A DNA stretch of 64,000 nt from an uncultured Pseudomonadota bacterium (GCA_963770835.1 CAVYRH010000026.1:78811-142810), one strand, 5' to 3'. Positions 12,610-57,647 are shown, numbered from the stretch's first letter. The notes: generated by a model from the letters alone, not told the origin. Numbers and translations: made by a program.

Positions 12610-13452
12610 TCAGGCCGGAATGAGCGAGTCGTAGGTCCGGATCTTGGCGATGACTTCTTCGATCAGGTAATCGGGGGTCGAGGCGCCGGCGGTAATGCCC
12701 ACCTTGTTCTTACCCTCAAACCACTTCGGGTCCAACTCCTGGGCCGTTTCCACGTGATGGGTGGCGTCGGGCAGGTTCATCATGCAAGTATCCGCCAGCT
12801 TGTGGGTGTTGCTTGAGTTCCGTCCCCCGATGACGATCATGATGTCCACGTTCTTCGAGAGCGCGGCGGCGGCGGTTTGGCGGTCCTTGGTGGGCTTGCA
12901 GATGGTATTGATGGGCACCACCTCGGCGCAGCGGGCCCTCAAGAGGCCCACGAACAGGTCGAATTTTTCCATTAAAAGTGTGCTCTGGCAGACCACCCCG
13001 ATCTTGGAACCCTCGGGGACCGTTTGGATATCCTCCTCGTGGTACACGATCAAGGGGTTCTTCATGCGGCTGGCGATGCCCTTCACTTCCACGTGGTGGG
13101 GATCGCCGATGATGACGATCTGCAAACCCTGGTTCTGGAGCTTGATGCCCTCGTTGTAGATCTTGGTCACCAGGGGGCAAGTCGTATCGATGATCTCCAG
13201 GTTCCGGTCTTTCATCTGGCCGATCACGTTGATATCCAGGCCGTGGGCAGTGATGACCACCTTGTTGTCCTCCACCTCTTCCAGCTTGTGCACGATCTTC
13301 TTGTTGAGGGAGGCCAGGCGGGCCACTTCCTGCGGGTTGTGGATGAGGGAACCGAAGATGAAGGCGCGGTCCATGGTTTCGGCCTTCTGAATAGCCTTCT
13401 TCACGCCGAAGCAGAACCCGGCGGCGTTGGCGATTTGGATTTCCCTAGGCAT
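12610..13452 (-). CDS. ispH: 4-hydroxy-3-methylbut-2-enyl diphosphate reductase (IspH/LytB)
   Basis: AGFCFGVKKAI, ITAHGL, IDTTCPLV, VIIGDPHHVEV and GASTP motifs of IspH. Start taken at the internal Met (MPREIQI); the upstream part of ORF 12610..13539 translates an inverted-repeat-rich intergenic region. Confidence 0.85.
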   Translation of the reverse strand: MPREIQIANAAGFCFGVKKAIQKAETMDRAFIFGSLIHNPQEVARLASLNKKIVHKLEEVEDNKVVITAHGLDINVIGQMKDRNLEIIDTTCPLVTKIYNEGIKLQNQGLQIVIIGDPHHVEVKGIASRMKNPLIVYHEEDIQTVPEGSKIGVVCQSTLLMEKFDLFVGLLRARCAEVVPINTICKPTKDRQTAAAALSKNVDIMIVIGGRNSSNTHKLADTCMMNLPDATHHVETAQELDPKWFEGKNKVGITAGASTPDYLIEEVIAKIRTYDSLIPA

Positions 13453-13665
13453 ATTTTCTTCCTTCGGAAGAGTTTTGAGTTCTAAATTTTGAGTTTTAAG
13501 TTTTGGAGGTTTTTCAATCAAAGATTGAAAAACATTCATTAACTTCGAACTAAGAACTCAGAACTTAAAACTGAAAGTCCTTGGCGAGGCCAATTCAAAC
13601 AGTGAAGGGATTATATATAATGCCCGAGCTGAAATGTATCCCCCGAGCAAGCCAAGGACTTTCAC

Positions 13666-16600
13666 ATGCCGGTTTCCCTCTATTTAGGCCCCTACCAGCC
13701 TTTCCTGGAAGACGAACTAGCCTCAGCGGTTAAAACCTTCCGTCAATCCGACCCTTTGTCGCCTTTGGTTGTCCTGGTTCCCAACCGGGCCCTGGTGCGC
13801 CACCTGGGCCAGGCCCTGGCCCGGGCCAACGGATCGGCCGTGAACGTCCGGGTGCTGACCCTGCACCAATACCTCCTCGAATTCACCGAAGAAAAATGGA
13901 TCAAGGAAGAAACCCGGTTCTTGCCGGAGTCCATCGTTCCCTGGGTACTGCGCGAGAACACCAAAAAAATCCGGCCCAAGGGGGACGGGCCTTTCGCGGC
14001 GGTGGACAAGACACCCGGGTTCCCCAAGACCCTGCGGGCCACCCTTTCGGAACTGCGCCAAGGGGGGTTCACGGCCAAGGAACTCGCGGAATCCGCCAAG
14101 GCCATCGGCAAAGCCCGCGACCGCAAGCGCCTGTCCGATAAATTGGCCGAATTCGCCGCTCTTTTGGACGAGAACCAGCAATGGAAAGCCAAGAACCGTT
14201 GGAAGGACCGGGAAGATCTCTATGAGGAAGCGTTGGCGCTTAAGCCCCCCGCCGCCCGGTTTTGGACCTATGGCTTCTATGACGCCTCGTCCCTCCAGAA
14301 GAAGGTCCTTCAGCATCTTTGCGGGAGCCAGGACTCCCAATGGTTCATTCCTTATGAAGGGGACCATCCGGCTTTTGAGTACGCGAAGCCATTCGTGGAA
14401 TGGGCGGGCAAGCTTGGGGAAGTGAAAAAAGAAGGAAAGTTTAAAAGCGGGAAGGGAACGGCGCTGGGAAGACTGCAGGACAACTTATTCAGGCCCGAAA
14501 ATACCCCTCACCCTGCCCCTCTCCCGCAAGGGGCGAGGGAATCTAGTTCTCCTTCTCCCTCGAGGGGAGAAGGAAGGGATGAGGGTGACTTTGATTCTTC
14601 TGACGTAAAGATCCTGCTTTGCCCCGGTGAACCGCGGGAGATGCGGGAGGTGGTGCGGGCCGCCACCGAAGAGGCCGAAAGACGAAAGACCCATTTTTCC
14701 AAATGTGGATTGATTCTTCGCCAATTCGAGACCTACCGGCGCATGATCGTCCCCGCCTTTGACGGCCAGGGCGTCCCCCTGGCCAAGAAGCCTCCGGTAT
14801 TCCTGATGGAGACCCCGGAGGCCAAGGCCTTCCTGCTCCTGCTCGAATGTTTCCAGGCGGAGTTCCCCCGGGAAACGCTGATGGATTTCCTGGCCTGCCC
14901 AAACCTGGACCCCGGGGGGTTCGGGGTGGGGGAAGAGGATTGGAACCCCCACCTTTGGGACCAAGCCTCCAAGGAAGCGGGTGTTGTGGAGGGGGAGGGG
15001 GCTTGGATCGACCGCCTGAAAGAATACGAAAGGCCCAGGTCCGGCAAGAGCTCGTTCGAAGAGGAGGGGATTTCCACGGGAGAATCCATGTCCCTTTCCG
15101 CCTTCCGGGTGAAAGTGCTTCAAACGCTTTTCGACGCAAGGCACAGGTTCGACAAGGAAAAGAATTGGGTCGGGAAGACCGGAATCCTTTTCGACCTGGC
15201 CGAGATGCTTTTTATTAAGTCCGACGCGAAAGAAGAGTTGAAAACCCTGCGGCGGGGAGTGGAGATCCTATCCAAAGAATCCTTCAAGGTGGAAAATGAT
15301 GAAATCAAAGCCCTTCTCTCCGGCCTGATGGAAGAGGTGAAGATTCCATGGAAGACGCCCGAGGCGGGCGGGGTCGAGGTGTCGGACCTCATGCAGGCCC
15401 GGGGCGTGCCCTTCGACGTGCTGGTCCTGCCCGGCTTGGTGGAACAGGGTTTCCCCCGGGTACCCCGTCCCGACCCGCTGCTCTTGGATGAGGAAAGGCG
15501 CATCCTCAATGAACGCTTTTCCGGCAAGGCCAAGGTGCCGGAAAAGGCCGAGGGGCGGCTGGAAGAGAAACTGCTTTTCCTCCTCGCGGTGCGAAGCGCC
15601 CGGGAATGCGTCATCCTCACCGCGTCCCACCTGCATCCCGGCACGGGCGCCCCCCGGGTCCCTTCCAGTTATCTCCATGAAACCCTGCGGGCGGTCACGG
15701 GCGAGCGCCAGGCCCAGTGGGGCGGGGATTCCCCCTATGTCCGAAAGGTCGCGGTGTCCGATTGGGTGCGCGACGGGGGCGAGGTGCGCGTGGACGACCT
15801 GGAAGAAGTCTTGAGCCGTTTCCAGGAAGCCCGGGAGGGGAACCCCCTGCCCGCCCAAGCCTATGCCGCCCGGAAACCCTTCTTCGACGAGGCGCGCAAG
15901 ATGCTCAAAGAGCGCCAGGGAACCCGCAAGTTCACGCCCTATGACGGGGTCTTCCAGGACGCCGCCGCCGTGGAAAAGCTGCGCCAGGACCATTCCCTCA
16001 AGGCCAAGACCCTCTCGGCCTCGCGGCTGGAGACCTACGCCGCCTGCCCGCTGCGGTATTTCTACCGTTATGTGCTGGGGCTCAAGGTCCATCCTGAACC
16101 GGAGCGGGTCTTCCAATTAGACCCGGCGGAAAAGGGCAATCTCATGCATTCGATATTGGAAGAGACCCTGGCCCGGGGCAAGAAGGACGGCTGGCTGAGG
16201 GACCGGGACGGCGAAAAGGCCGCTCGGGCCCTCGAGGAAGAGACCCAAAAGGCCTTCCAAAATTTCGAGAAAGAGGGGGTGACGGGTTCCCAGGCCCTCT
16301 GGCAATGGAGCCAATTCAGCCTGCGGAAGGACCTGCAACGGGCCCTGCGGAAGGTGCTGGCGGATAAGGATTGGACCCCGGTGGATTTCGAGAAGGCCTT
16401 CGGGCGCGAGGGCCAGCCCGAGGTAATTTTTGAGACCCCGGCAGGAACCTTCCGGCTGGAAGGCTTCATGGACCGGGTGGACCTTTCCCCGGACGGCAAA
16501 CGGTTAAGGGTGCTGGATTACAAGTCGGGGAGCAAGACGGGTTTCGCCAATGACAGCGTGAAGGAAGGCACCAAAATACAGATGCCGCTTTACCTTTGGG

Positions 16601-16905
16601 CCTGCCGGACCCTTTATCCGGGAGTTGTTCCTGAGGAAGCGGTCTATGAGTTCCTTACCGCTAAAGGGGACTATGGGTCGGTTTATTTCGAAGCCACCGA
16701 TTGGAAAAAGGTGGAAGAACCTTTGAAAGCACTCCTGACCACGGCGGCGGAAGCGGTGGACCAAGGTCTTTTCCCCGCGGCTGCCAAGGCTTGCGATAAC
16801 TGCGATTACCGGATTTTGTGCGGACCAGGAGCGGAAAAGCGGGGTGCGCGGAAGAAGGAAGATATGAGAGTTGAGAATTATTTCAAGTTGGAGGAATTAT
16901 CATGA
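13666..16905 (+). CDS. addB: AddB/RexB-like helicase-nuclease subunit (inactivated-helicase N-terminus, C-terminal PD-(D/E)XK nuclease with Fe-S cysteines)
   Basis: 1079 aa directly upstream of addA. C-terminal nuclease motif VLDYKSGSK and Cys cluster ...AKACDNCDYRILCG. Carries an in-frame 86-bp palindromic element (14504..14589). The last ~15 codons are low-GC. Confidence 0.75.
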   Translation: MPVSLYLGPYQPFLEDELASAVKTFRQSDPLSPLVVLVPNRALVRHLGQALARANGSAVNVRVLTLHQYLLEFTEEKWIKEETRFLPESIVPWVLRENTKKIRPKGDGPFAAVDKTPGFPKTLRATLSELRQGGFTAKELAESAKAIGKARDRKRLSDKLAEFAALLDENQQWKAKNRWKDREDLYEEALALKPPAARFWTYGFYDASSLQKKVLQHLCGSQDSQWFIPYEGDHPAFEYAKPFVEWAGKLGEVKKEGKFKSGKGTALGRLQDNLFRPENTPHPAPLPQGARESSSPSPSRGEGRDEGDFDSSDVKILLCPGEPREMREVVRAATEEAERRKTHFSKCGLILRQFETYRRMIVPAFDGQGVPLAKKPPVFLMETPEAKAFLLLLECFQAEFPRETLMDFLACPNLDPGGFGVGEEDWNPHLWDQASKEAGVVEGEGAWIDRLKEYERPRSGKSSFEEEGISTGESMSLSAFRVKVLQTLFDARHRFDKEKNWVGKTGILFDLAEMLFIKSDAKEELKTLRRGVEILSKESFKVENDEIKALLSGLMEEVKIPWKTPEAGGVEVSDLMQARGVPFDVLVLPGLVEQGFPRVPRPDPLLLDEERRILNERFSGKAKVPEKAEGRLEEKLLFLLAVRSARECVILTASHLHPGTGAPRVPSSYLHETLRAVTGERQAQWGGDSPYVRKVAVSDWVRDGGEVRVDDLEEVLSRFQEAREGNPLPAQAYAARKPFFDEARKMLKERQGTRKFTPYDGVFQDAAAVEKLRQDHSLKAKTLSASRLETYAACPLRYFYRYVLGLKVHPEPERVFQLDPAEKGNLMHSILEETLARGKKDGWLRDRDGEKAARALEEETQKAFQNFEKEGVTGSQALWQWSQFSLRKDLQRALRKVLADKDWTPVDFEKAFGREGQPEVIFETPAGTFRLEGFMDRVDLSPDGKRLRVLDYKSGSKTGFANDSVKEGTKIQMPLYLWACRTLYPGVVPEEAVYEFLTAKGDYGSVYFEATDWKKVEEPLKALLTTAAEAVDQGLFPAAAKACDNCDYRILCGPGAEKRGARKKEDMRVENYFKLEELS
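14504..14589 (+). mobile_element. Miniature TIR-bounded double-hairpin element inserted in-frame in addB
   Basis: cccctcaccctgcccctctcccgcaaggggcgagggaatctagttctccttctccctcgaggggagaaggaagggatgagggtgact: termini cctcaccct / agggtgac are inverted. Two internal hairpins (ccctctccc-gcaa-ggggcgaggg and ccttctccc-tcga-gggagaagg). No stop codons; encodes PHPAPLPQGARESSSPSPSRGEGRDEGD. Near-identical copy in addA. Confidence 0.7.
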
Positions 16906-17531
16906 GACGAGTGGATAAAAAGTTTATTTTTCTTTATTTTTTTATCGGATTTTCTCCAATCCTTTTCGCGCAAAATGAGTCAAACCAAAATCCTAATCCT
17001 CGGATACCAGAATTACATTCGGACAGTGACGGTGCAATAACACCCACAGCTGTGGAAACTCATCCATATGGAATAGGTATATCTTCAAATCCAATTTGGA
17101 AAACTCGAAACGACGAAGAAATCGTAAGTAAATCCAATGAATTTCTTAAAAATCTGTTCGGCGATAAGTGGTTTGATCACTATTCCGTTTTCAGAATTAA
17201 AAAGAACAATATTCTTAGTCCTGATTATTTTAAAAATTCGAAGGAACATTTAAGCCATGCTTTCGTTGTATTTGTGGAATACAGCTTTTCCGGGCCAAAA
17301 AATTTAAAATCAATAAGTGACGATAAAATCATAAATGGCGTAAGACATGCATGGGTTGGTCCATGGATGATCTTTCATTTGGATTGTACGGAAGCAAATG
17401 ATTCTGGAACTCTGAAGTTCGAATACGGTTCAAATATTGTTCCGCCCTATGATGTCGCTAAGTTGATATCGGCACAAACGCGACAGACACTGCGAAAAAA
17501 GCCGGTTATGACGTTCAATTCAGCTCTTTAA
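16902..17531 (+). CDS. Hypothetical secreted protein encoded in a low-GC island
   Basis: 209 aa with hydrophobic N-terminus FIFLYFFIGFSPILFAQ. Local GC far below the flanking genes; ATGA overlap with the addB stop. Confidence 0.45.
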   Translation: MRRVDKKFIFLYFFIGFSPILFAQNESNQNPNPRIPELHSDSDGAITPTAVETHPYGIGISSNPIWKTRNDEEIVSKSNEFLKNLFGDKWFDHYSVFRIKKNNILSPDYFKNSKEHLSHAFVVFVEYSFSGPKNLKSISDDKIINGVRHAWVGPWMIFHLDCTEANDSGTLKFEYGSNIVPPYDVAKLISAQTRQTLRKKPVMTFNSAL

Positions 17532-17749
17532 GCTTAATAACTACCCCAAAGATGTTGGGAAAAATTTCATTACTTGTTCCCGGCTATTCCTCAGTCTTTA
17601 AAAATTCCGGTATGGTCGAAGTAAATGCGGAAGATTCATCGATTTTATACAGGGGTTTTCCAACGGGGGGACCGATATTAGTTCCTATTACGAGTCAGTT
17701 CAAAAAGAAGTAAGGTCCAAGAAGAAGGAGTTCTTATTGATCTTTGATC

Positions 17750-17883
17750 AACTAATACGGGACCGGGTCACCCACGACCATGAAACCCTTTTCGCGGTGG
17801 ACGCGGGGGCGGGAACGGGGAAGACCACGCTCCTGGTTTCCCGGCTCATCGCGCTCTTGGTCGAAAACAGGATTGCGGCCTAA
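17750..17883 (+). pseudogene. Diverged duplicate of the addA 5' end (Walker A region), truncated by a stop
   Basis: Translates DRVTHDHETLFAVDAGAGTGKTTLLVSRLIALLVENRIAA*. Includes a 32-nt exact match to addA 18830-18861 (accacgctcctggtttcccggctcatcgcgct), but flanks are diverged. Confidence 0.65.
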
Positions 17884-17904
17884 TGACTGTTCTTTTGAAT
17901 CCGC

Positions 17905-17953
17905 TTGATTTTCATTGGTCGCTATGAGAATATGACCATGATATATAGTCATA
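17905..17953 (+). promoter_or_regulatory. Putative sigma70 promoter (TTGATT-17-GAATAT) with overlapping inverted repeat tatgac-N11-gtcata, upstream of the antitoxin gene
   Basis: Read directly: ttgattttcattggtcgctatgagaatatgaccatgatatatagtcata, followed by RBS aaggaga and ATG at 17964. Confidence 0.35.
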
Positions 17954-17963
17954 AGGAGAAACC

Positions 17964-18191
17964 ATGAAAACCATCGCCGCCGGTGAATTTAAGGCCAAGT
18001 GCCTTTCCCTATTGGATGAGGTCAGCCGCGCCCATGAAACCATCGTGGTGACCAAACGGGGGATTCCCGTGGCAAAGGTGGCCCCGGTACTTAAAGAAAA
18101 GGGCGGCCGCCATGCTTCCCTTCGCGGGAGCATTTTGGCAGAGAAAAACCTTATCCATCCGATCGGGGATAGCTGGGAAGCCGAGCAATGA
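17964..18191 (+). CDS. Type II antitoxin, Phd/YefM/VapB-like
   Basis: 75 aa; MKTIAAGEFKAKCLSLLDEVSRAHETIVVTKRGIPVAKVAPV matches the Phd/YefM fold. 4-nt overlap with the downstream PIN gene. Confidence 0.7.
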   Translation: MKTIAAGEFKAKCLSLLDEVSRAHETIVVTKRGIPVAKVAPVLKEKGGRHASLRGSILAEKNLIHPIGDSWEAEQ

Positions 18192-18574
18192 TTCTTTTGG
18201 ATACCCATGCCTGGATTTGGTGGTGCACGGGTTCTTCCAAGATTTCCCCGAAGGCCTTAAAGGCCATTAAAGCCGAAGAAACGGTGGGGATTTGCGCCAT
18301 TAGCTGTTGGGAAGTCGGGATGCTGGTGGCGAAAAAGCGGTTGGTCTTGGACCGGGACGTGGAGGTATGGGTAGACCAGGCCTTGAAATTCCCCAAAGTC
18401 CAGTTGATCCCCCTGACACCCCGGGTTGCCGTGAAAAGCACCTTGCTGGGGGAAGGATTCCATGGGGACCCGGTTGATCGGATCTTGGTGGCCACCGCGG
18501 CGGACTATGGTTGTCCCCTCGTCAGCAAGGATGAGCGAATCCATCGTTTCAAGGGCATCAAGGTGATTTGGTAA
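18188..18574 (+). CDS. vapC: Type II toxin, PIN-domain ribonuclease (VapC)
   Basis: 128 aa; ILLDTHAWIWW N-terminus with acidic PIN residues, typical VapC. Confidence 0.75.
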   Translation: MILLDTHAWIWWCTGSSKISPKALKAIKAEETVGICAISCWEVGMLVAKKRLVLDRDVEVWVDQALKFPKVQLIPLTPRVAVKSTLLGEGFHGDPVDRILVATAADYGCPLVSKDERIHRFKGIKVIW

Positions 18575-18748
18575 AAGATATGCGGAACACACCTGAACCG
18601 AAAAAAGCGCCTGCGGCGGATCAAATCGTCGCTATGGAGGATAAACACCGACAAGGCTACCTTTCTCATCCCGCCACAAAAAAGGAATTTGGGGTTTGGG
18701 AAAAGGAACAGGCTTGGGGGGATGAGTGAAGGTTAATAAGGCGATTTA

Positions 18749-21700
18749 ATGATCTCAGACCAGTCCGTTCGGGACCACATTATCCATGAACATGAGACCC
18801 TCTTCGCGGTGGATGCGGGGGCGGGAACTGGTAAGACCACGCTCCTGGTTTCCCGGCTCATCGCGCTTCTCCTGGAAAAGCAGGCGCCCTTAAGCCGCAT
18901 CGCGGCCATCACCTTCACCGAAAAGGCCGCGGCTGAATTGGCAGAGCGGCTCCGATCCAAGCTCGAAGAGGCTCTCAGTAAGCACCCCGACCAAAAAGCC
19001 CTGATTCTCCAAGCCCTCGAAGATATGGAAAGAGCCCCCATTTCCACCATCCATTCCTTCTGCGCGGGGCTTTTGCGGGAATACCCGGTGGAAGCGGGAG
19101 TGGACCCCCAGTTCACCCTCCTCGACGAAGTGCAATCGGGGGCCTTCGAGGACCAGGCCTGGGACTATTGGCTCAAGAAGAACCTGGCCAAGCCCGTCGA
19201 ACCCTTATTCCAGTTCCTTCGTTTGGGCGGCACCTTCGAGCATGTGGATGAACTCAAGCAGTTCCTGAAGCGCAACCGCACCCTTTTGGCCCTGTCATCC
19301 CCCAAACCCTTGCCTTCGGTCCAATCTTTTAAGTATCAATTCAGTTCCTTCGTGGCTTTGACGAAGAAGGAAGCCACCCAATGCGCCAAGCATGAGGATA
19401 CCCTTTATGTGGCTCTTGAAGCCTTTTGGGCCCAGTGCACGGCTATCGAATCTTTAAATACACCCTCGCCCCTTGGCCGTGGTTTTGAGGGTACACAGGG
19501 GCTCTTCCCTGTGAAAGCTGTTGGGGAGATGGGTAGGGTGAGGGGTAAGCAGGAGAGTCACCCTCATCCCGACCTTCTCCCGTCAAGGGAGAAGGGGAAA
19601 CCAATCGATGGTGACTCACTGTCTGAGGATATTGCCTTTGAGTTGGCGAACTTGAAGGTTCCCAAGGTCGGCAACAAGGGCGCCCAAGGCAATTGGGGGA
19701 AAGAGCGGTTGGCCGCCCTGCGGGAGGGGTTCGTGAAGCTGGCGGAGGACCATCAGACGGCATTTGCCTCCTTCAAAGAGGCCGCCGTCCTGAACCTGGT
19801 CCATTGGATCGGGGGATACCTGAAGGAATGGGAAAGCCAAAAGGCCCAGGGCGGCTTCCTCGATTTCGACGACCTACTCCTCAAGACCCGGGACCTTTTG
19901 CGGGACTATCCCGAAGCGCGGGAAGAGATGAAGCAACGGCTCGACTACCTCTTCGTGGACGAGTTCCAGGATACCGATCCCCTGCAAGTCGAGATTGTTT
20001 TCTTTCTCTCGGAGAAATTGGCCCCCCTACGCCATCCCACTACGCCCGATGGGCTTCGAGGGACAGGCGGCTTCGGGGGGCGGCCTCAAGTTATTGATTG
20101 GAAGAAGATTGAACTTGAGGCCGGCAAGCTTTTCCTGGTCGGCGATCCCAAGCAAAGCATCTACCGCTTCCGCCGCGCGGACGTCGCCATCTATGAGGCG
20201 ACGAAGGAACGCATCCTCGCCAACGGAGGCAGGGTCGAGGTTTTGGCCGAAAACTTCCGCACCGTAGGCGGTTTGGTGGAATGGGTCAACGGCTGTTTTC
20301 CTACCCTCTTCGAGGGCACGGGCATCCACTATCACCCCTTGAACGCGAGCCGGGAGAAAGGAAAGACCGAGGGTACATTGCCCATCCTTTGGGGCTTGAG
20401 CATCCAGGCGTCCAAGGAAGAAAAACCGGGCAAGGCCCTCCTTCGGCAGCTCGAGGCCGAAGGGGTGGCGACCTTCCTGAAAGAGCAAGTGTTGGGCGGC
20501 GGGTTCACGGTTTCGGACCCCAAGACCCACGAAAGGCGGCCGGTCAAGAAGGGCGACATCGCCATCCTTTTCCGGGACCTCTCCAACGACAACGAGGAAT
20601 TCTGGGAGGAAGCCCTCCGTAAACGGGACCTTTCCTACCAGATCGTGGGGGGAAAGAGGTTCTACAACCGCCCCGAGATCGTGGCCCTTTCCACCCTCTT
20701 GACCTGCCTTTCCTCGCCCGCCGACGAGGCGGGCTGTGTTGCCGTCCTCCGAGGGCCTTTGTTCGGTTTCAGCGACGAGGAACTGTTCCTTCACCATGCC
20801 GGCGGCGGGAACTTTCAATTCTTAAATCCCTCAAATTCCGGCAAAGACACCCCTCACCCTGACCCTCTCCCTCAAGGGGCGAGGGTAGCTAGTTCCCCTT
20901 CTCCCTTGAGGGGAGAAGGACGGGATGAGGGTGATTCAAAGGATTCTCCTCAAAGATATAGAGAAAAAATAAAGTTGGCATTCTCCTATCTTAGGGAATG
21001 GCATCAAGCCACCCGAACCTTAGGGGTGTCGGATACTCTCGCGAAACTCTATGAAAGCACCAACCTGCTCGCCGTGACGGCGGGCCAGCCCCATGGGGAA
21101 CAGCGGGTGGCGAACCTGATGAAGGTGCTCGACCAGGCACGGGACCTGGAGACCTCCCAACATTTCACCTACCGGGCCTTCACCCATTGGCTGACGACCC
21201 AACAAGAGGAAGGGACCATGGAGGGTGAGGCCCCCGGGCCCGATTCCTCCGAGGACCGCACCGGTGTCTTTAATGACACCGGCACCGTCAAATCCAGCGC
21301 CTCGGCTGGTAGCCTCGGCGCAGACCGCATCACCCTCATGACCATCCACAAGGCCAAAGGGCTCGAATTCCCAATCGTATTTGTGTCGGGCCTGGCCGCC
21401 GACCCCAAGGACTCGGGGAGCCTGGTGGACCGCAAACATTCGATAGGGGCTTTCAAAGTGGGGAAGGCGGACCTGGGTCTAAGGACCCTGAACTACGAGG
21501 CCGTGCGGGATGAGGAGGAGGTCCAACGCAAGGCCGAGGACACCCGCCTGCTTTACGTGGCGGCCACCCGGGCCCGGGATTGCCTTCTTTTGCCGCATTT
21601 CCAATTCTCACCCGAAAGCAAGACCCAGAATGAGAGCCTTTTCGCTGGGCCGCTGCTGAAGGCCCTGGAGGAAAACAGCGCGCTGGTGCTATCTGCGCCG

Positions 21701-22456
21701 AGGCCACCAGCCGAGGCGCAAGATTTGACGGCACGGGCGTCCTTACAGACGCCGGTGCATTGGGTCGAGCCGAAGGAAGATGCCGAACCCTTGGGCGACC
21801 CCCCGGCCTGGGTGGTGCCCTTGGACGAAAAACCGGGAGTGGCTTTGGAAGTTGAGAAGGAAAAGCTCAAGAACGAGCAGGAAGCCCGTAAGAAAAAACT
21901 CGAAACCTTACGCAGCGAGAAGGATTTCAAATCCGTCACATCGGTCCTGAGTGTGGACGCGGATAAAAAGGAGCGGGAAGAACGGGTCTTTGATGAACCG
22001 GAAGCGGTCTCACCCTGGGGTGGGAAGGACCTGGGTTCCTTCGCCCATCTTTTATTGGAAAAGGGCTGGGATTGGGATAGTGCTACTTTGAAAAAAGCAG
22101 CTTCGTTCTACGCGGAGAAGATGGGGATTCCCGGGGAACAAGCGGACATGGCCGTGGGATGGGTGGAGAAAGCTCTCGGAAGCGCACTCATTAAAAGAGC
22201 CAAAGATTCCAAAAAGGCTTATCGGGAATTACCCATCACCGGAAAGCGGAAGGATGGAACCTACTTGAACGCGGTCATCGACCTGGCTTTCTTCGAAAAC
22301 GATGAGTGGGTTATTGTGGATTACAAGAGCGACCAAGACCCCAAGAAACTCGAGGAAAAATACAAAGAGCAATTGGGCTATTACAGGGAAATGTTGGAGA
22401 CCCTGACCCAAAAGAAGGTCAAAGAAACCAAATTATTGTTCCTCCGAAAACTTTGA
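18749..22456 (+). CDS. addA: AddA-like ATP-dependent helicase/nuclease subunit (UvrD/Rep SF1 helicase plus C-terminal PD-(D/E)XK nuclease)
   Basis: Walker A AVDAGAGTGKTTLL; helicase motifs DEFQDTDPLQ, VGDPKQSIYRFRRAD, TIHKAKGLEFP; C-terminal nuclease VIDLAFFENDEWVIVDYKSDQD. Contains two in-frame repeat-element insertions. Confidence 0.85.
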   Translation: MISDQSVRDHIIHEHETLFAVDAGAGTGKTTLLVSRLIALLLEKQAPLSRIAAITFTEKAAAELAERLRSKLEEALSKHPDQKALILQALEDMERAPISTIHSFCAGLLREYPVEAGVDPQFTLLDEVQSGAFEDQAWDYWLKKNLAKPVEPLFQFLRLGGTFEHVDELKQFLKRNRTLLALSSPKPLPSVQSFKYQFSSFVALTKKEATQCAKHEDTLYVALEAFWAQCTAIESLNTPSPLGRGFEGTQGLFPVKAVGEMGRVRGKQESHPHPDLLPSREKGKPIDGDSLSEDIAFELANLKVPKVGNKGAQGNWGKERLAALREGFVKLAEDHQTAFASFKEAAVLNLVHWIGGYLKEWESQKAQGGFLDFDDLLLKTRDLLRDYPEAREEMKQRLDYLFVDEFQDTDPLQVEIVFFLSEKLAPLRHPTTPDGLRGTGGFGGRPQVIDWKKIELEAGKLFLVGDPKQSIYRFRRADVAIYEATKERILANGGRVEVLAENFRTVGGLVEWVNGCFPTLFEGTGIHYHPLNASREKGKTEGTLPILWGLSIQASKEEKPGKALLRQLEAEGVATFLKEQVLGGGFTVSDPKTHERRPVKKGDIAILFRDLSNDNEEFWEEALRKRDLSYQIVGGKRFYNRPEIVALSTLLTCLSSPADEAGCVAVLRGPLFGFSDEELFLHHAGGGNFQFLNPSNSGKDTPHPDPLPQGARVASSPSPLRGEGRDEGDSKDSPQRYREKIKLAFSYLREWHQATRTLGVSDTLAKLYESTNLLAVTAGQPHGEQRVANLMKVLDQARDLETSQHFTYRAFTHWLTTQQEEGTMEGEAPGPDSSEDRTGVFNDTGTVKSSASAGSLGADRITLMTIHKAKGLEFPIVFVSGLAADPKDSGSLVDRKHSIGAFKVGKADLGLRTLNYEAVRDEEEVQRKAEDTRLLYVAATRARDCLLLPHFQFSPESKTQNESLFAGPLLKALEENSALVLSAPRPPAEAQDLTARASLQTPVHWVEPKEDAEPLGDPPAWVVPLDEKPGVALEVEKEKLKNEQEARKKKLETLRSEKDFKSVTSVLSVDADKKEREERVFDEPEAVSPWGGKDLGSFAHLLLEKGWDWDSATLKKAASFYAEKMGIPGEQADMAVGWVEKALGSALIKRAKDSKKAYRELPITGKRKDGTYLNAVIDLAFFENDEWVIVDYKSDQDPKKLEEKYKEQLGYYREMLETLTQKKVKETKLLFLRKL
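19461..19604 (+). mobile_element. Composite in-frame insertion in addA built from the same hairpin-repeat family (inverted partial copies)
   Basis: caccctcgccccttg (= reverse complement of caaggggcgagggtg), then ggttttgagggtacacaggggctcttccctgtgaaagc (near-identical to 57471-57505), then agggtgagggg, then tcaccctcatcccgaccttctcccgtcaagggagaagg. Stop-free; encodes ...TPSPLGRGFEGTQGLFPVKAVGEMGRVRGKQESHPHPDLLPSREKGKP... Confidence 0.6.
20850..20934 (+). mobile_element. Second full copy of the TIR-bounded double-hairpin element, in-frame in addA
   Basis: cccctcaccctgaccctctccctcaaggggcgagggtagctagttccccttctcccttgaggggagaaggacgggatgagggtga, about 90% identical to 14504..14589. Encodes PHPDPLPQGARVASSPSPLRGEGRDEGD. 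Confidence 0.7.
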
Positions 22457-22461
22457 CCCAC

Positions 22462-24582
22462 CTACCGGCAAAGGGCCAGAAATTTTTTCAAGTCGTACTT
22501 CGGATCAAACTTCGCCGTGCGCTGGAAGCATTCCTTAGCCCGGTTGAAGTCCCCTTCCTTGACGAGGGCCAGCCCCAAGCGGTGGTAAACGCCCGCGAAT
22601 TTTCGGTCCAGAAAGGGGAAGGACCGGATCGCTTCCACCGGCTGACCCAGCAACCACTGGGCCGGGGTCATATCCGAACTCACCAGCAGGATGTCCAAAC
22701 CCTTTTCCAGGACCCAGCTTTTTAAAAGCGGGTCACTCCCACAGGAAGGATAAAGGGCCCAAAGTTTTTCCAAGACGGGCGTGAAGTCGGGATTTTCCAC
22801 CACATAGGGCATCCCGCCGTAGGCATCCTGCAAAACCTGGTGGACCTCCTTCCATTTGAGGAATATCTTTTGCTCTCCGGGTGAGGTGATGGGAACAAGG
22901 ACCAGGCAAAGAATGGGGCCGTTGGCGGCGGGATCGGATAAAACCTCGGACCGCGCCCGGGGAAACCTTTCTTGAAGGGTCTGGACGTAGTGAAGGTCGG
23001 TGAGGATCGCGGCCCAAGAGGCTTTTTCCGGCTCGAGCCGGGGATTGCGGGCCGCGTTGAAAGGGTAAGTGGACACCAGGAGGGATTGGTCATAGGCATC
23101 GGAAACGAAATCGCTGAAGACAAAACCCGGCCCCTGGCTTTCCTCCGTTTCCCTCAACAATTGAAACGCCCGGTAACGTTCCGGGGATTTGATGTGGATG
23201 CCTGGAACCATATTGGCGGACCATTGGTGAAACACCCCGAACAAGTGATAACTGTCCAAGCCAAGGGACAGGGCCAAGACCAGAAGAAAAAGGCTTTTTC
23301 GGGCGGAGGGTAGGAGGGTGGACAGCAGGATTCCCAGCCCTCCCGCCACCGGCACGAGGCACAAGGGCATAATGAGATCGGTGCGGAAGCATTCCAGGGT
23401 GTTGAAGAAAAAAGCCGGCAGAAACAAAAGACCCAGCGCCGCCCACCACCAGCTCCTCCAAGTTTTTCCCAGGAATCCGCGCCAGGTTCCCAGCCCGGTG
23501 AAAAACAAGGCATCCCAGACGGGATTGAAAAATCCGCCCCAAAGGGGGGCGAAACTCCAATAGGAACGGTCGATGGGGCCCCAAAAGACGGCGGTGAAAT
23601 AAGACAGGATGGACGCTCCTTGACGGTCCCAGGGGGTTCCCTGGCGGCTGAAGACGGAATAAGTAAAGACATGCCCTCCTGCGATATTCTTTAGGAACGC
23701 GGCGTCCATCGGCAGGGACAAAAGCACCGCGGGGAAGAGATAGGCCAGGAAAACTTTCCAACCCAGTCCCGGTTTTTTCCGGCAAGAAAGGTAAACCCCC
23801 GCCGTGACAAGGGCAGCCGGGGCCACAAAAAGCATGGAAGCGTAAAAACTTCCGCCCACGAGGAGGCCCAAAAGGAACGCCCGCCGTCCCGAAAGCCTGG
23901 AAGGAGCTCCCAGGAAAAGGCCCAAGACGCCCAACAGGAGGAATTCCACCACCCATTGGAGCACTCCCAGGTAGGCGTCGAATTTACCGTAGTAAAGGGG
24001 CCAAAAACCAAGGGCCAACAGCGCGGCGTAAAGGAAGGAAAAGGATGAAGGGAAAAAACGGCGGACAGCCCACCATCCCAAAGGCACGGCCAACAGCGAC
24101 AGCAAGGCGGGATAAAGCCACATGGAATAAAGGGAAGGCGCAAAAACCCTGAAGAATCCCCCTTGCAGCCAGGTGAAAAGCGGCATGGTTTTTTCATGGC
24201 CGATCAAAAGGGGCCAAGACCCTTTTTCGCAAAGGCCGATGGCGAAGTAACTGTAATTAGCGTCATCCCATGTCGGCCAGACGGGAACGGAAACCAGGCC
24301 GTAAAGCCTCAGGAACAGCGCCAGGACGCCCAAGACCAAAACCATTCCCCTACCGTTCATTTCCAAGGAAGGGAATGGCTTCTCCGGGTTCACTTTGGCG
24401 AAGGCGGGTGAGAAAAAAACCAATGCCAGCTGCAGCACCAATCCCAGGGGGAAAAGCCAAAATCTCTGCCAGACGGTCCAGGGACCCCAAGCCAACAATG
24501 CGTTCAAACCCATGAGGATGAAAAACCTGGCCCAAATCCTCAGAGCCTCCGGCCGGCCGGTTTCCGCGAACAAGAGGGGCAT
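22462..24582 (-). CDS. GT-C fold glycosyltransferase, PMT/TMTC-like multi-TM domain with C-terminal TPR repeats (paralog 1 of 6)
   Basis: 706 aa; >10 predicted TM segments; first-loop acidic motif VWPTWDDANYSYF (DD/DE of GT39-like enzymes); C-terminal TPR-like helices (...YHRLGLALVKEGDFNRAKECFQRTAKFDPKY). Confidence 0.6.
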   Translation of the reverse strand: MPLLFAETGRPEALRIWARFFILMGLNALLAWGPWTVWQRFWLFPLGLVLQLALVFFSPAFAKVNPEKPFPSLEMNGRGMVLVLGVLALFLRLYGLVSVPVWPTWDDANYSYFAIGLCEKGSWPLLIGHEKTMPLFTWLQGGFFRVFAPSLYSMWLYPALLSLLAVPLGWWAVRRFFPSSFSFLYAALLALGFWPLYYGKFDAYLGVLQWVVEFLLLGVLGLFLGAPSRLSGRRAFLLGLLVGGSFYASMLFVAPAALVTAGVYLSCRKKPGLGWKVFLAYLFPAVLLSLPMDAAFLKNIAGGHVFTYSVFSRQGTPWDRQGASILSYFTAVFWGPIDRSYWSFAPLWGGFFNPVWDALFFTGLGTWRGFLGKTWRSWWWAALGLLFLPAFFFNTLECFRTDLIMPLCLVPVAGGLGILLSTLLPSARKSLFLLVLALSLGLDSYHLFGVFHQWSANMVPGIHIKSPERYRAFQLLRETEESQGPGFVFSDFVSDAYDQSLLVSTYPFNAARNPRLEPEKASWAAILTDLHYVQTLQERFPRARSEVLSDPAANGPILCLVLVPITSPGEQKIFLKWKEVHQVLQDAYGGMPYVVENPDFTPVLEKLWALYPSCGSDPLLKSWVLEKGLDILLVSSDMTPAQWLLGQPVEAIRSFPFLDRKFAGVYHRLGLALVKEGDFNRAKECFQRTAKFDPKYDLKKFLALCR

Positions 24583-26999: not shown

Positions 27000-28565
27000 T
27001 TGACCCATTCCTCCCAACAAAGCCGCTTTTGGGCCCTGGCCGTCCTGGGTTTGGCCGGCCTCTTGATCGTTTTGGAACGCTGTCACACCTACTCCGAGCC
27101 CCTCGAAAGGGACATCACCACCTACGCGGTCATTGGCGAGGAACTCCTCAAGGGCCGGTCCCTTTACTCCGACCTTTGGGACCACAAGCCCCCTGCCATC
27201 CACCTGACCTTCGCCCTTGCCGAGGCCGTTGCGGGGGAGGGGCCCCTTTCCATCTATCTCTTAAACGTATTGGCGGCTTTGGCTACCTTGGCGGGGTTAT
27301 ACCGGGCCGGAAAAAGCCTGGGCGGTTTGGCTGGGGGCCTTTGGACGGCGCTGATTTGGGCGGCCGTTTCCGGGGACCTTTACCTGCAGGCCAACCAACC
27401 CAACGAGGAAGTTTTTCTCAATGCTTTTCAAACCTGGGTATTCGTGTTGTGGCTTTCGGCTTCCGTGAAAACTTTCGAACCTCGCCGGTGGGTCCTTATC
27501 GGCATCTTTTCCGCCATCGCTTCCATTTACAAACCCTTCGCGGTTTTGGAAATCCTGTTTCTTGGCGCGGTTTACCTGGTTCTCAACCCCAAATCTTCCC
27601 CAAGAAAAACCGCTTTGCGCCAAGTGGGAACCGCCTTTGCCTGCGTCCTAGCCGCTTGGGTAGTTCTCTTCGGCTGGTTTTCCCTCCAAGGAAGATGGAA
27701 CGACTTCAAGAACGCAGTCTTTACCTACAACGTTTATTACAGCGGTTACCATGACGCCAGTTTCCTGGAGATAGTGCAAAACATCGGAGGCCAGGCGCTG
27801 AATTTCCAAACCCTTGCCTGGCTCTTCCTACTCTTCGCGCTGGGGTGCCTGGGGGCTTTGCTTGGAAAAAGTAAAAAAGAGGAGCGGGAGCCCCGGCTTT
27901 TTTGGGGCGCCTTTTTGGTGGCGGCCGAATTGGAAGTCCTTCTTCCCGGCTGGTTCTTCGCCCATTACGATCAGCTTCTGCTGCCGCCGCTCGTCTTGGG
28001 GGCGTCTTGGGGCATTACCTATTGGGGGGAGTTAATTAAAGATAAAAGATGGAAATGCCTGCCCGGCACCCTCTTGATGGCCTTCCTTATTTTCCATGAG
28101 GCGCCTTTCTACCGGCTCACACCCGAGGAATGGGCGAATAAAAAATATTCGGACGGTCCGCTGTTCATTCAATCCTACCAACTGGGCCGCGAATTGGACG
28201 GGATACTCCAGCCAGGCGAAACCTTCTATGAATGGGGAAATGAATCCGAACTTTATTTCGCCGCCCGCCGTTCCCCGCCCAGCGGGGTTTTTTACAGCTA
28301 CCCTCTCCTGAATAATCCCCTGGCTGGTGAGCTTTCCCAGCGGGTCGTGCGAGATTTGGAAAAGCAAAGGCCCGAGGTCATCGTCTTAGACACGGCTTTT
28401 TACTTCAACGGTAGTTTTATCCAGCACCACCCCATCCTTCAATGGGTCCGGGGGGTCCAGGACCGCTACAAGCCCTTCCCCCAAAACCCCTACCGGAAGC
28501 CTTTCCTCCTGCTGATGCTCAAGGGGGGCAACCTGGAAAAACGGCTGGGGATGAAACAGACCTGA
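27000..28565 (+). CDS. Polytopic membrane protein with C-terminal soluble domain; possibly a GT-C-like glycosyltransferase (uncertain)
   Basis: 521 aa, TTG start, about 9 TM segments in the first 330 aa, YSDLWDHKPP loop motif, hydrophilic C-terminal domain. Embedded in the GT-C array. Confidence 0.35.
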   Translation: MTHSSQQSRFWALAVLGLAGLLIVLERCHTYSEPLERDITTYAVIGEELLKGRSLYSDLWDHKPPAIHLTFALAEAVAGEGPLSIYLLNVLAALATLAGLYRAGKSLGGLAGGLWTALIWAAVSGDLYLQANQPNEEVFLNAFQTWVFVLWLSASVKTFEPRRWVLIGIFSAIASIYKPFAVLEILFLGAVYLVLNPKSSPRKTALRQVGTAFACVLAAWVVLFGWFSLQGRWNDFKNAVFTYNVYYSGYHDASFLEIVQNIGGQALNFQTLAWLFLLFALGCLGALLGKSKKEEREPRLFWGAFLVAAELEVLLPGWFFAHYDQLLLPPLVLGASWGITYWGELIKDKRWKCLPGTLLMAFLIFHEAPFYRLTPEEWANKKYSDGPLFIQSYQLGRELDGILQPGETFYEWGNESELYFAARRSPPSGVFYSYPLLNNPLAGELSQRVVRDLEKQRPEVIVLDTAFYFNGSFIQHHPILQWVRGVQDRYKPFPQNPYRKPFLLLMLKGGNLEKRLGMKQT

Positions 28566-28567
28566 GG

Positions 28568-32874: not shown

Positions 32875-33147
32875 CGGTCAGGGGCCCTAACCGGAGTATC
32901 CCGACTCGGACGGAAAACGGCAACAAAAATCATTTGAACCGACGTTTGGACGGGCTCCGGCCCGTGGAAATTCCGGTTCTTTTCCGAGGCAAAGTTTTCC
33001 AGGCCACGCCTCCAATGTTAGAATACACCGTCGTTCAGCTTGCGGGTCCCCGGGCTTTAACCCCTTGTTCCCCGCGTTCAAAATGTATCGGGCGAGGCCG
33101 CCATTTCCCCCACGACAAAGTCCAAGCTCTTTCCCGCAGGCCCCGCC

Positions 33148-37024: not shown

Positions 37025-37065
37025 CCGGGGATTTTACCTAAAAAAACAAGCCCCCATGGTGGATT

Positions 37066-37425
37066 TCAGGCCGAACAGGCCTCAAGCCATTGGGAAAGGT
37101 GCCGGTCGATGCCGCTCAAGCGCTTAGCCCAGCGGTCATGGAGCTCGGTCGAGAGCAGGTTTTTCCTCAGGCAAAGGCTCATCAAGGGGACGCACTCGTG
37201 GGTCATAGCCAGGGCCTGCTCCAGGAATTTCCCGGTGCGGGCCGGGCTCTTCGAATCCTTTGCTTTTTGGACGGCCTGGGAAAGTTCGTGGACCTGGCGT
37301 TTCAGGCGCGAGACAGCCTCGTGCTTCAAGGCCCAGGGGAGGTTCTGGTAGGTCTTGTTGATCTCCCCGGCCAGGTCGTCGCAGAGGGCGGGAATGTTCA
37401 CATTCAAGTAATCCGATGACGCCAT
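37066..37425 (-). CDS. Small hypothetical all-helical protein between GT-C paralogs
   Basis: 119 aa, predicted helical, no TM segment; position conserved inside the co-oriented array. Confidence 0.35.
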   Translation of the reverse strand: MASSDYLNVNIPALCDDLAGEINKTYQNLPWALKHEAVSRLKRQVHELSQAVQKAKDSKSPARTGKFLEQALAMTHECVPLMSLCLRKNLLSTELHDRWAKRLSGIDRHLSQWLEACSA

Positions 37426-37450
37426 AGGCTTTCCTCCCCTTCTGGGATGG

Positions 37451-51545: not shown

Positions 51546-51621
51546 GGACATTTAGCTCAGCTGGTTAGAGCGTCGCGTTCACATCGCGAAGGTCACTGGT
51601 TCAAATCCAGTAATGTCCACC
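51546..51621 (+). tRNA. tRNA-Val (anticodon CAC)
   Basis: Hand-folded cloverleaf: acceptor ggacatt/aatgtcc, D-arm gctc-agctggttag-agc, anticodon stem tcgcg/cgcga with loop ttCACat, T-arm actgg-ttcaaat-ccagt, encoded CCA. Confidence 0.85.
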
Positions 51622-54674: not shown

Positions 54675-54708
54675 CTAAAACCTTTTGAACCGCGGAGTAC
54701 ACGGAGAA

Positions 54709-54768
54709 CACAGGGTAAAACAACTTTCAATCTTTTGTTTTACCCTGTGAACCCTGTGTCCCCTGTGG
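54709..54768 (+). repeat. 13-bp perfect inverted repeat (cacagggtaaaacaa-N11-ttgttttaccctgtg) followed by three direct ccctgtg repeats, in the nadE / metallophosphoesterase divergent region
   Basis: Read directly; the stem motif cacaggg...ccctgtg resembles the hairpin module of the repeat family near lpd and in addA. Confidence 0.5.
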
Positions 54769-54837
54769 CTAAGATGTTTTTTATTTGAGCGCTTAGTGTA
54801 AGGTGAACGCCGTGTTAAGTCAAAAAGAGGAGCATCC

Positions 54838-57426: not shown

Positions 57427-57639
57427 AGGTGGGGATGGAGGGGGCATGGGGGGGTTACCCCCATGGTTTTGGAAGGGTACACAGGGGAGCTTCCCTGTGA
57501 GCGCGAAGCGCCCATCCTCATCCAACTTTAAATGAGATATTCGGAACACATTAAGGATGTGAGTGAACGGGGAGTGGGGCGCAGCCCCACTGATTCGAGA
57601 CGGGGTATCATTAGGGGGACTTTCCCCTATGAGCGAAGC
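57401..57639 (+). repeat. Two tandem ~115-bp units, each starting with a copy of the last 30 nt of the lpd-like gene and containing two G/C-stem hairpins, ending ...tgagcg(cg)aagc
   Basis: Unit 1 57401-57509 (hairpins catggggggg-tta-cccccatg and cacagggg-agc-ttccctgtg). Unit 2 57530-57639 (gtggggc-gc-agccccac and taggggga-ctt-tcccctat). Unit-1 module matches addA 19481-19511 nearly exactly. Confidence 0.65.
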
Positions 57640-57647
57640 TGGAGGCT

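Follow-up and report, generated by a model that had tools for sequence, protein, structure and literature searches.

We analyzed a 64-kb stretch of bacterial DNA (CAVYRH010000026.1; here called the window), whose lineage is candidate division FCPU426, with respect to three segments that are translated in frame within addB and addA, the genes for the two subunits of the DNA-repair enzyme AddAB, a helicase-nuclease. It is likely that all three are copies of the interspersed repeat known as BoxC, PIT, or TMECO, a triplex motif that normally lies between genes, and that they have lodged in loops of AddA and AddB. Further sources for this repeat under its names BoxC, PIT element, and TMECO are reportedly Bachellier and Hoyne & Maher 2000. 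The original prediction, made from the sequence of the window, had set the segments apart as a family of miniature elements of their own, a view that gave way once the already described motif was recognized in them.

A repeat search of the window recovered a direct repeat of 91 nucleotides (nt) at 14498-14588 and 20844-20934 that is 90% identical, in agreement with the claim of a stop-free, in-frame element of about 85 bp shared at about 90% identity by addB and addA. Copies 1 and 2, of 85 to 86 nt, are stop-free in the gene frame and encode PHPAPLPQGARESSSPSPSRGEGRDEGD and PHPDPLPQGARVASSPSPLRGEGRDEG, three of the six frames being free of stops in copy 1 and two of six in copy 2. The encoded peptides have 28 to 29 residues (about 28 had been announced), whereas the indel relative to element-free orthologs comes to about 40 to 47 residues at both addA sites, extra A/T-rich flanking codons included. 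A rearranged third copy (19461-19604) lies in frame inside addA, and an inverted half of it (19555-19599) is 93% complementary to 20893-20937. This copy, which had been called composite and inverted, is real but proved to be a head-to-head pair rather than a simple inversion, with a 26-nt mini-hairpin nested in its A unit. All three window copies are pairs of an A unit and a B unit (Table 1). Peptides spanning the junctions, such as …NTPHPAPLPQGAR… and …GEGRDEGDFDSSDVK, can be predicted from the gene frames. A 20-nt unit pattern occurs at five sites in the 64 kb, where 0.03 would be expected, and all five are inside addB or addA. Homology between the insert flanks of addB and addA, suggested by BLAST, was rejected as an alignment extension only.

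Identity and spread of the repeat

A full-text search with GGGTGAGGG led to Holder et al. 2015 (PMC4666352), where the BoxC / PIT / TMECO intrastrand triplex motif is described with the pattern CCCTCNCCC-N3-6-GGGNGAGGG-N3-GGGNGAGGG. This published pattern is found at two sites in the window against 0.00 expected, namely, in the A units of copy 1 and copy 2; an insert in loop 1 breaks it in the A unit of copy 3, and unit B lies outside the literal pattern. Relative to the commonest E. coli sequence (CCCTCGCCCCTTTGGGGAGAGGGTTAGGGTGAGGGG, the "A mm" consensus), differences in the window's unit A are confined to the two loops. BLAST matches unit A at 92.3% identity across 39 nt to 4920 of the 5426 complete E. 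coli genomes, and the best matches listed overlap no annotated feature. E. coli K-12 has five inverted TMECO pairs, always of type A with type B, and the two E. coli types differ in loop 2 only (PMC4666352); Enterobacter plasmids carry the entire doublet at 76 to 78% identity. The inverted pairing of A and B units accounts for the 85-nt "palindrome" of the original prediction. Since location describes this family rather than defining its structure, a coding position does not exclude membership in BoxC/TMECO.

Each unit is built of three 9-nt blocks, a C-rich block, its Watson-Crick complement, and a mirrored G-rich block, the last of which could, judging from its sequence, fold back to supply the third strand of a purine-motif triplex. 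An E. coli triplex-motif sequence forms such an intrastrand triplex by circular dichroism and nuclear magnetic resonance (PMC4666352). In unit B (CCTTCTCCC-N5-GGGAGAAGG-N3-GGATGAGGG), block 2 complements block 1, and block 3 mirrors block 2 with a T opposite one A, as in unit A. Of the two internal hairpins that had been described as perfect, that of unit B is so, whereas that of unit A has one mismatch, the "mm" type that is dominant in E. coli. Folded as single-stranded DNA, the copies reach −23 to −25 kcal/mol with z scores of −2.8 to −3.7. Rfam gave only subthreshold, microRNA-like hairpin matches over the elements and, at its gathering threshold, only a tRNA at 51546-51619 in the window.

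The blocks co-vary across the 253 units from all fetched loci, the combination being (T,A,A) in 170 units, (C,G,G) in 79, and mixed in 4. Triads (G·G, A·A, T·A) are complete, at nine of nine positions, in each of the three most frequent block combinations, to which 240 of the 253 units belong. Because many loci had been chosen on two of the three blocks, a separate unbiased test was run on 61 metagenome doublets selected on unit-B blocks 1 and 2 only, in which the next 16 nt were read. Wherever a third block was recognizable, it was GGATGAGGG (40 of 40) and never GGGTGAGGG; in the other 21 the 16 nt contained none, and most of these carry an extra small hairpin in loop 2. A plain hairpin needs no third block, and unit B loses a G3 run while keeping the triad register, which together favor a three-block structure. 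A G-quadruplex, for which unit A has four G3 runs and unit B one fewer, was rejected as the conserved structure on the same sequence features, and the three-block structure appears to be the better candidate. A Chi-like role was also considered for GGGTGAGGG.

The repeat is widely dispersed. With one genome per species, a scan for a 22-base unit-B pattern found at least 118 stretches, and the matches listed come from Dehalococcoidia and other Chloroflexota, from Gamma-, Beta-, Alpha-, and Deltaproteobacteria, and from Planctomycetota, Atribacterota, Fermentibacteria, Omnitrophota, and candidate division FCPU426. Unit B is mostly partnered by an A unit, either head-to-head (…GGGTGAGGGGTA/TCACCCTCATCCC…), as in copy 3, or, as in copies 1 and 2, with the hairpins side by side and the TCACCCT termini at the outside. 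Copy number is high in Chloroflexota casp150-mb.161, Methylophaga GLR1851, and Enterobacter asburiae. A metagenome scan for the A+B doublet yielded 61 doublets on 59 contigs, 60 of the 61 doublets being non-coding and the sole coding one lying in an AddA ortholog (locus L181; 74% identical). As the family is almost all intergenic, also under the E. coli matches listed, the suggested bias toward in-frame sites is not supported.

For the coding calls, the longest stop-free stretch across each unit was taken, and candidates were then checked. Convincing coding cases in the genome scan are in AddB (L030 and L111) and AddA (L078 and L111), and a Phycisphaerae protein, seen on two contigs, has a single unit in its low-complexity tail at the C terminus. 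On a Sphingomonas parapaucimobilis plasmid (NZ_CP155755.1; L187, 1400-1560), a head-to-head triplex-motif pair lies in frame (…PSPLVGEGRGEG…TPHPDSLPQGERA…) in the linker between the lipoyl domain and the next domain of an annotated dihydrolipoamide acetyltransferase, which is an independent coding example in a different phylum. The long open reading frames (ORFs) that span the doublets of L179, L149, L183, L139, and L175 were rejected as coding: either the doublet precedes the true start (that of UvrC in L179, that of a signal-peptide protein in L149) or the ORF is a G+C-rich read-through. The family is overwhelmingly intergenic, and its coding copies are rare and seated in flexible segments, the scans made having found them only in AddA/AddB, the one Phycisphaerae protein tail, and the one Sphingomonas E2 linker. 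A protein search with a 58-residue tandem of the encoded peptide found no further carriers, which is probably an effect of compositional filtering and does not speak for their absence. A literature search of limited breadth gave no account of BoxC/triplex motifs in frame within genes, or of such motifs being concentrated in AddAB.

Insert sites in AddA and AddB

Both host genes look functional from their sequences. The addB product matches PDDEXK_1 (6e-42), Exonuc_V_gamma, and ADDB_N in Pfam, and AddB orthologs are 73 to 85% identical to it. The window AddA, whose best solved relative is B. subtilis AddA (3u44_A; E = 3e-51), is about 100 to 160 residues longer than its orthologs (1070 to 1174 residues). 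Both frames are unbroken, over 1079 codons in addB and 1235 in addA, and the helicase and nuclease motifs are invariant in the ortholog alignments. Conservation between the window and the orthologs is 85, 91, and 60% at codon positions 1, 2, and 3, respectively, and this excess at the first two positions over the third indicates purifying selection.

As had been surmised, the segments fall in surface loops. In an AlphaFold2 model of AddA residues 1 to 1100 (72 aligned sequences; mean predicted local distance difference test score [pLDDT], 79.9; predicted template modeling score, 0.76), nine segments have a pLDDT below 50. Five of these are in inserts, corresponding to copy 3 (242-281), copy 2 (696-731), and the first (832-856) and second (978-985 and 995-998) copies of a 69-nt repeat described below; a short dip at 435-437 is the GC-hairpin insert, and three more low segments, beyond residue 1016, are outside any insert. 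All are predicted as coil between confidently predicted elements, and the composition of the inserts, with Pro, Gly, Ser, and charged residues, points in the same direction. The inserts are thus modeled as flexible surface loops.

We aligned 22 AddA orthologs and recovered AddB orthologs from neighboring contigs. Among them, triplex-motif pairs recur at three shared sites, without change of orientation or frame but with a patchy distribution. The AddB site is occupied in the window, L125, L111, and L030; the copy-3 site of AddA in the window, P0002, P0003 (unit B only), P0008, P0009, P0012, and L111; and the copy-2 site of AddA in the window, P0008, L181, and the distant P0034 (45% identical), with unit A alone in P0004 and P0014. 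Two of these AddA orthologs are on contigs of FCPU426 isolates, P0014 on JASHNQ01 (isolate JOPF001) and P0009 on JAHFCG010000019.1 (isolate nzgw216). The peptides are present in 15 of 121 AddA-family sequences, including the window protein and a near-identical cluster mate, and all 15 are among the 34 best-scoring homologs. This bears out the view of a dispersed palindromic repeat with lineage-specific, in-frame insertions, confined in AddA to the closest relatives. On a neighbor-joining tree of gap-free columns, the minimum number of changes per insert is about the number of carriers (at the copy-2 site, four changes for five carriers); presence and absence at the sites do not follow the gene tree.

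The silent sites of the host genes allow the inserts to be compared with their surroundings. Third-codon-position identity between the window and its orthologs is 47 to 64% over the whole gene; in the 40 codons on either side of a shared insert, it almost always departs from the gene average by no more than about ten points, and inside the shared units it is 70 to 93%. The contrast is sharpest between the window and P0034 at copy 2, which agree in 26 of 29 third positions, where 47% would be expected (P = 1.6e-6). In the 29 AddAB units together, 2 of 522 positions of blocks 2 and 3 are off-type, and loop 2 takes at least 12 forms. Since the flanks have ordinary identity, we do not support the idea that a recombination tract recently brought in inserts and flanks as one; the one clear excess in a flank, in L126 at the first 69-nt insert, is a possible exception. 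This silent-site pattern fits two readings, constraint or homogenization of the blocks at the DNA level and repeated fresh insertion of near-consensus copies. Whatever keeps the blocks intact in intergenic copies also acts on the coding ones.

Besides the triplex-motif pairs, the loops of AddAB hold at least three other families of small palindromic repeats. The window's addA has four further repeat inserts, namely, two copies of the 69-nt structured repeat, the GC-hairpin insert, and the mini-hairpin of copy 3. One family is the 69-nt structured repeat, whose two window copies are 83% complementary, lie in opposite orientations, and are each an exact 23-codon insert relative to empty orthologs; the direct repeats beside them are of variable length (7 nt and 4 to 5 nt). 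Each 69-nt insert is present in only 3 to 4 of 23 orthologs. The strict 69-nt core pattern has one other copy among the fetched loci, in AddA of L126, and misses a diverged AddA copy in L124. At the AddB loop that holds copy 1 in the window, L124 and L127 have a different palindromic element (GAGATTGC…GCTCCTCGCAATGAC), L122 and L126 have diverged variants, and L123 is empty; in L122, L126, and L111, another AddB loop also holds this element in its conserved form. As GAGATTGCCACGTCGC…GCTCCTCGCAATGAC, encoding EIATS…APRNDG, the element was located in the AddB orthologs of L122 (5773-5787), L124 (6858-6872), L126 (4696-4710), L127 (4069-4083), L111, and L030, as well as outside AddB in L093 and L157.

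The mini-hairpin nested in copy 3 belongs to a separate small repeat family, with a second exact-pattern copy at 57475-57500 (none expected by chance) and others in L126, L165, L167, and L173. The A-long variant of unit A is also found in the unrelated metagenome loci L138, L165, L172, and L173. An intergenic cluster of small palindromes at 57384-57640, following the ORF at 56143-57426, consists of a unit of about 68 nt repeated 128 nt apart with two short G+C hairpins; it includes the mini-hairpin (GGGTACACAGGGG-NNN-TTCCCTGTGA) and has no Rfam match.

All six insert sites of the window are within addAB, which makes up 10.9% of its length (P of about 1.6e-6 if the sites are taken as independent and uniform, a post hoc figure). 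Among the same genomes, two neighboring genes have ordinary small indels only.

Origin of the coding copies

We propose that an intergenic repeat lodges in three flexible surface loops of AddA and AddB in FCPU426. To survive as coding sequence, a copy would need a length that preserves the frame, one of the few open frames, and a permissive loop; the frame in use, one of the two to three of six that are stop-free, encodes a peptide rich in Pro, Gly, Ser, Arg, and Glu that would spare the fold. Such a filter of length, frame, and loop would leave coding copies that are rare and share orientation and frame. Copies may be repeatedly gained, lost, or homogenized at a few fragile, permissive sites, as suggested by their patchy presence together with the lack of a recombination tract in the flanks. 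Likely routes would be replication slippage and template switching promoted by the hairpin or triplex, or the action in trans of a single-strand transposase. For the 69-nt family, direct repeats of variable length are more easily reconciled with microhomology than with a target-site duplication of fixed size. When the triplex-motif pairs were examined as miniature inverted-repeat transposable elements, inverted termini (CCCTCACCCT…AGGGTGAGGG) were present, with no clear duplication beside them. Holder et al. found no link between the motif and mobile elements and described an excess of local deletions and rearrangements around it (PMC4666352).

Several observations weigh against this proposal. 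Within the insert block at the copy-2 site, the flanking codons of different carriers are shared but diverged (NPSNSGKD, NPSISKSD, and NPSISKTG; NPSxSxxD), and this sequence pattern suggests that at least some carriers have a single old insertion by descent and not by independent gain. The window holds no intergenic copy of the triplex-motif pair in its 64 kb. No transposase, fixed-length target-site duplication, or other mobilization signature was found, so that mobility is something we infer. Low pLDDT may partly stem from missing homolog rows over the inserts. As for the concentration in AddAB, the tolerance of long surface loops would be an economical answer, and selection for surface variation or a structure acting in cis a more interesting one.

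The shared flanks also count in favor of the strongest alternative, which we nevertheless regard as unlikely. In this scenario, each site received a single ancient insertion in the FCPU426 ancestor, the doublets were exapted and kept by selection, either for a nucleic acid structure in the addAB DNA or mRNA or for variable surface loops that might, for example, evade phage inhibitors of AddAB, and absences are losses. Sites, orientation, and frame are indeed the same in orthologs down to 45 to 50% protein identity, the motif blocks are invariant at silent sites in a gene that is saturated, and nearly all convincing coding copies from the unbiased scans are in AddA or AddB. The block invariance, however, is equal in intergenic copies across phyla, so no function specific to AddAB is needed to explain it, and most orthologs, close relatives included, are without each insert, so none is required. 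Different repeat families, moreover, fill the same AddB loop in different species, and the left flank of P0034 is not recognizably homologous to that of the window.

A related idea, to which we give about the same modest weight as to exaptation, is that the loops of AddAB in FCPU426 are discrete sites of recurrent exchange of structured repeats (triplex-motif pairs, the 69-nt repeat, GAGATTGC…GCAATGAC, and GC hairpins) and that this turnover is itself selected. If so, turnover would diversify the surface of AddAB, a double-strand-break and anti-phage hub, against phage-encoded inhibitors of AddAB/RecBCD, or the DNA or RNA structure would tune expression under replication stress, and the invariance of the blocks at silent sites would reflect a function at the nucleic acid level.

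The remaining explanations are far less credible. That the inserts are artifacts of assembly or gene calling, or that the genes are decaying pseudogenes, is very improbable: the source is probably a metagenome-assembled genome, and the operon shows rearrangement (the addA 5′ end is duplicated, and cassettes separate addB from addA), but the same in-frame inserts occur in independent assemblies (NCBI, ENA, JGI, and Logan), and the long frames, conserved catalytic motifs, and purifying selection described above speak against decay. We give equally little credence to an ancestral peptide that was lost elsewhere and resembles BoxC by coincidence. An ortholog as distant as P0034 does have one at the same place, but AddA homologs ranked below the 34 best (32 to 45% identity, other phyla) lack the peptides, B. 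subtilis AddA has no counterpart of the inserts, and the identity extends over about 85 nt, pair architecture included, to a non-coding repeat of unrelated phyla. The original prediction had named homologous peptides in the AddA/AddB of unrelated bacteria as evidence against insertion, and among the 121 AddA-family sequences none occur outside the clade. Least credible of all, and close to untenable, is a local duplication or gene conversion between addB and addA only, since, even though all copies in the 64-kb window are in these two genes, exact 22-base unit-B matches lie in at least 118 stretches of many phyla, the doublet is on 59 metagenome contigs, E. coli has unit A and Enterobacter the doublet, and more than 170 loci in other genomes carry the element that the original prediction had feared might be unique to its two sites.

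Neighboring features and relation to known repeats

The region between addB and addA is itself variable. Positions 17737-17883 repeat, in truncated form and at about 80% identity to 18749-18879, the first 44 or so codons of addA; a PhdYeFM antitoxin (17964-18191) and then a PIN toxin (18188-18574) come next. FCPU426 isolate JOPF001 is arranged in the same manner (17737-18574 in the window; 6936-7775 in L127). In other relatives, the gap holds other cargo (a protein kinase, LPD22, or unknown ORFs). The partial duplicate and the varying cargo make the addA 5′ end look like an integration hotspot for small cassettes. An ORF of 209 residues at 16902-17531, whose ATG overlaps the addB stop, has a G+C content of 33 to 40% against about 57% in the window and a signal-peptide-like start; its product has no Pfam match, and it is probably foreign cargo.

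Upstream of addB, the LytB/IspH ORF (12610-13539) has 309 residues against 280 in five relatives, and the 29 additional residues at the N terminus are probably due to an upstream start codon chosen in the ORF call and not to a genuine extension. Diverged paralogs of a membrane protein of about 700 residues with a TPR C terminus, whose relatives match PMT_2, are encoded at 22462-24582, 28500-33000, and 35400-41200, and yield many direct-repeat families of 60 to 80% identity, including a tandem spacing of 2183 nt. An imperfect hairpin at 54677-54781 has long arms of 47 nt (72% complementary) around a loop of 11 nt.

Table 1. Host genes, triplex-motif copies, and other inserts in the window
Feature	Coordinates	Strand	Description
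addB	13666..16905	+	1079 residues; PD-(D/E)XK nuclease subunit with RecC/AddB-like N terminus; hosts copy 1
Copy 1	14504..14589	+	Inverted doublet of triplex-motif units, in frame; AddB residues 278-306
Copy 1, unit A	14505..14539	-	CCCTCGCCC-CTTGC-GGGAGAGGG-GCA-GGGTGAGGG on the G-rich strand; exact TMECO pattern match
Copy 1, unit B	14551..14585	+	CCTTCTCCC-TCGAG-GGGAGAAGG-AAG-GGATGAGGG; variant motif, perfect hairpin, mirrored third block
addA	18749..22456	+	1235 residues; UvrD-type helicase and PD-(D/E)XK nuclease (Pfam); hosts copies 2 and 3
Copy 3, A-long unit	19463..19545	+	CCCTCGCCC ... GGGAGATGG-GTA-GGGTGAGGG; loop 1 holds a 46-nt insert
Nested mini-hairpin	19489..19514	+	GGGTACACAGGGG-CTC-TTCCCTGTGA; 26 nt, inside the A-long unit
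Copy 3, unit B	19561..19596	-	Head-to-head with A-long (…GGGTGAGGGGTA-agcaggagag-TCACCCTCATCCC…)
GC-hairpin insert	20015..20089	+	LAPLRH…GFGGRPQV; broken by a further insert; present in some orthologs only
Copy 2	20850..20934	+	Inverted doublet, in frame; AddA residues 702-729
Copy 2, unit A	20851..20885	-	CCCTCGCCC-CTTGA-GGGAGAGGG-TCA-GGGTGAGGG; exact TMECO pattern match
Copy 2, unit B	20896..20931	+	Assigned by block parsing
69-nt repeat, first copy	21259..21327	+	23 codons, TGVFNDTGTVKSSASAGSLGADR; direct repeat GACCGCA on either side
69-nt repeat, second copy	21684..21757	-	…SAPRPPAEAQDLTARASLQT…; net insert of 69 nt relative to empty orthologs

BoxC/triplex motifs have had no assigned function or route of spread since they were described in the 1990s, and descriptions have placed them strictly between genes. 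In this respect coding copies are informative, as the silent sites of their host genes provide a neutral yardstick. That the blocks, including the third, are conserved at the DNA level, and that they co-vary three ways between A and B, is comparative evidence for the maintenance of a three-block structure, rather than a mere hairpin or G-quadruplex. The family is now extended to many phyla, AddAB of FCPU426 stands out as a hotspot with turnover of several repeat families at fixed loops, and the window adds to Rickettsia a second, independent case in which palindromic repeats have remained in frame within a conserved enzyme.

The comparison with Rickettsia palindromic elements (RPEs), drawn when the segments were first noticed, is apt for their behavior. 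RPEs are about 100 to 150 bp long, A/T-richer, and confined to Rickettsia. Like the window copies, they are short palindromic repeats that lie in frame in conserved genes, encode a fold-compatible peptide, and are patchily distributed (Ogata et al. 2000; PMC10969869). About half of RPE copies, however, are in many unrelated genes, whereas here coding copies are rare and clustered in one operon, and no sequence relationship between RPEs and the window repeat has been established. REP/BIME/REPIN sequences, which are mobilized by RAYT, resemble the window units as G+C-rich imperfect palindromes of 20 to 40 nt that occur singly, as inverted doublets, or in mosaic clusters and are mostly extragenic. 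The window units differ from them in having no conserved GTAG-type 5′ tetranucleotide (GTAG is present only in the spacer of copy 2 and not in copies 1 and 3), in conserving a mirrored third block that a simple hairpin does not need, and in a consensus common to many phyla, whereas REPs are species-specific. No RAYT gene was found in the window, though no search aimed at one was made. Intragenic ERIC and enterobacterial RU miniature elements likewise are small intergenic repeats with open frames and occasional in-frame fusions (Delihas 2007; PMC2759123), but they form another sequence family, of 103 to 168 bp with terminal inverted repeats, that is not reported in AddAB.

The closest correspondence is with BoxC/TMECO itself, with which the window copies share the three-block sequence, the type of mismatch, the inverted pairing of two types, the combination of conserved blocks with variable loops, a multicopy and dispersed occurrence, and an association with local indels and rearrangement. 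Three differences stand against these likenesses. The K-12 motif is "always located intergenically" (PMC4666352), whereas the sequence here predicts three pairs translated in frame in addA and addB. The 2015 survey listed 262 proteobacterial genomes for the TMECO pattern (PMC4666352), whereas the host in the present case is of candidate division FCPU426, with further members of the family in Chloroflexota, Planctomycetota, Atribacterota, and others. Finally, unit B (CCTTCTCCC / GGGAGAAGG / GGATGAGGG) lies outside the published pattern yet follows the same logic. The window thus presents a known repeat family in a rare coding context, and its departures from that family are the coding location, the host range, and the co-varying unit B.

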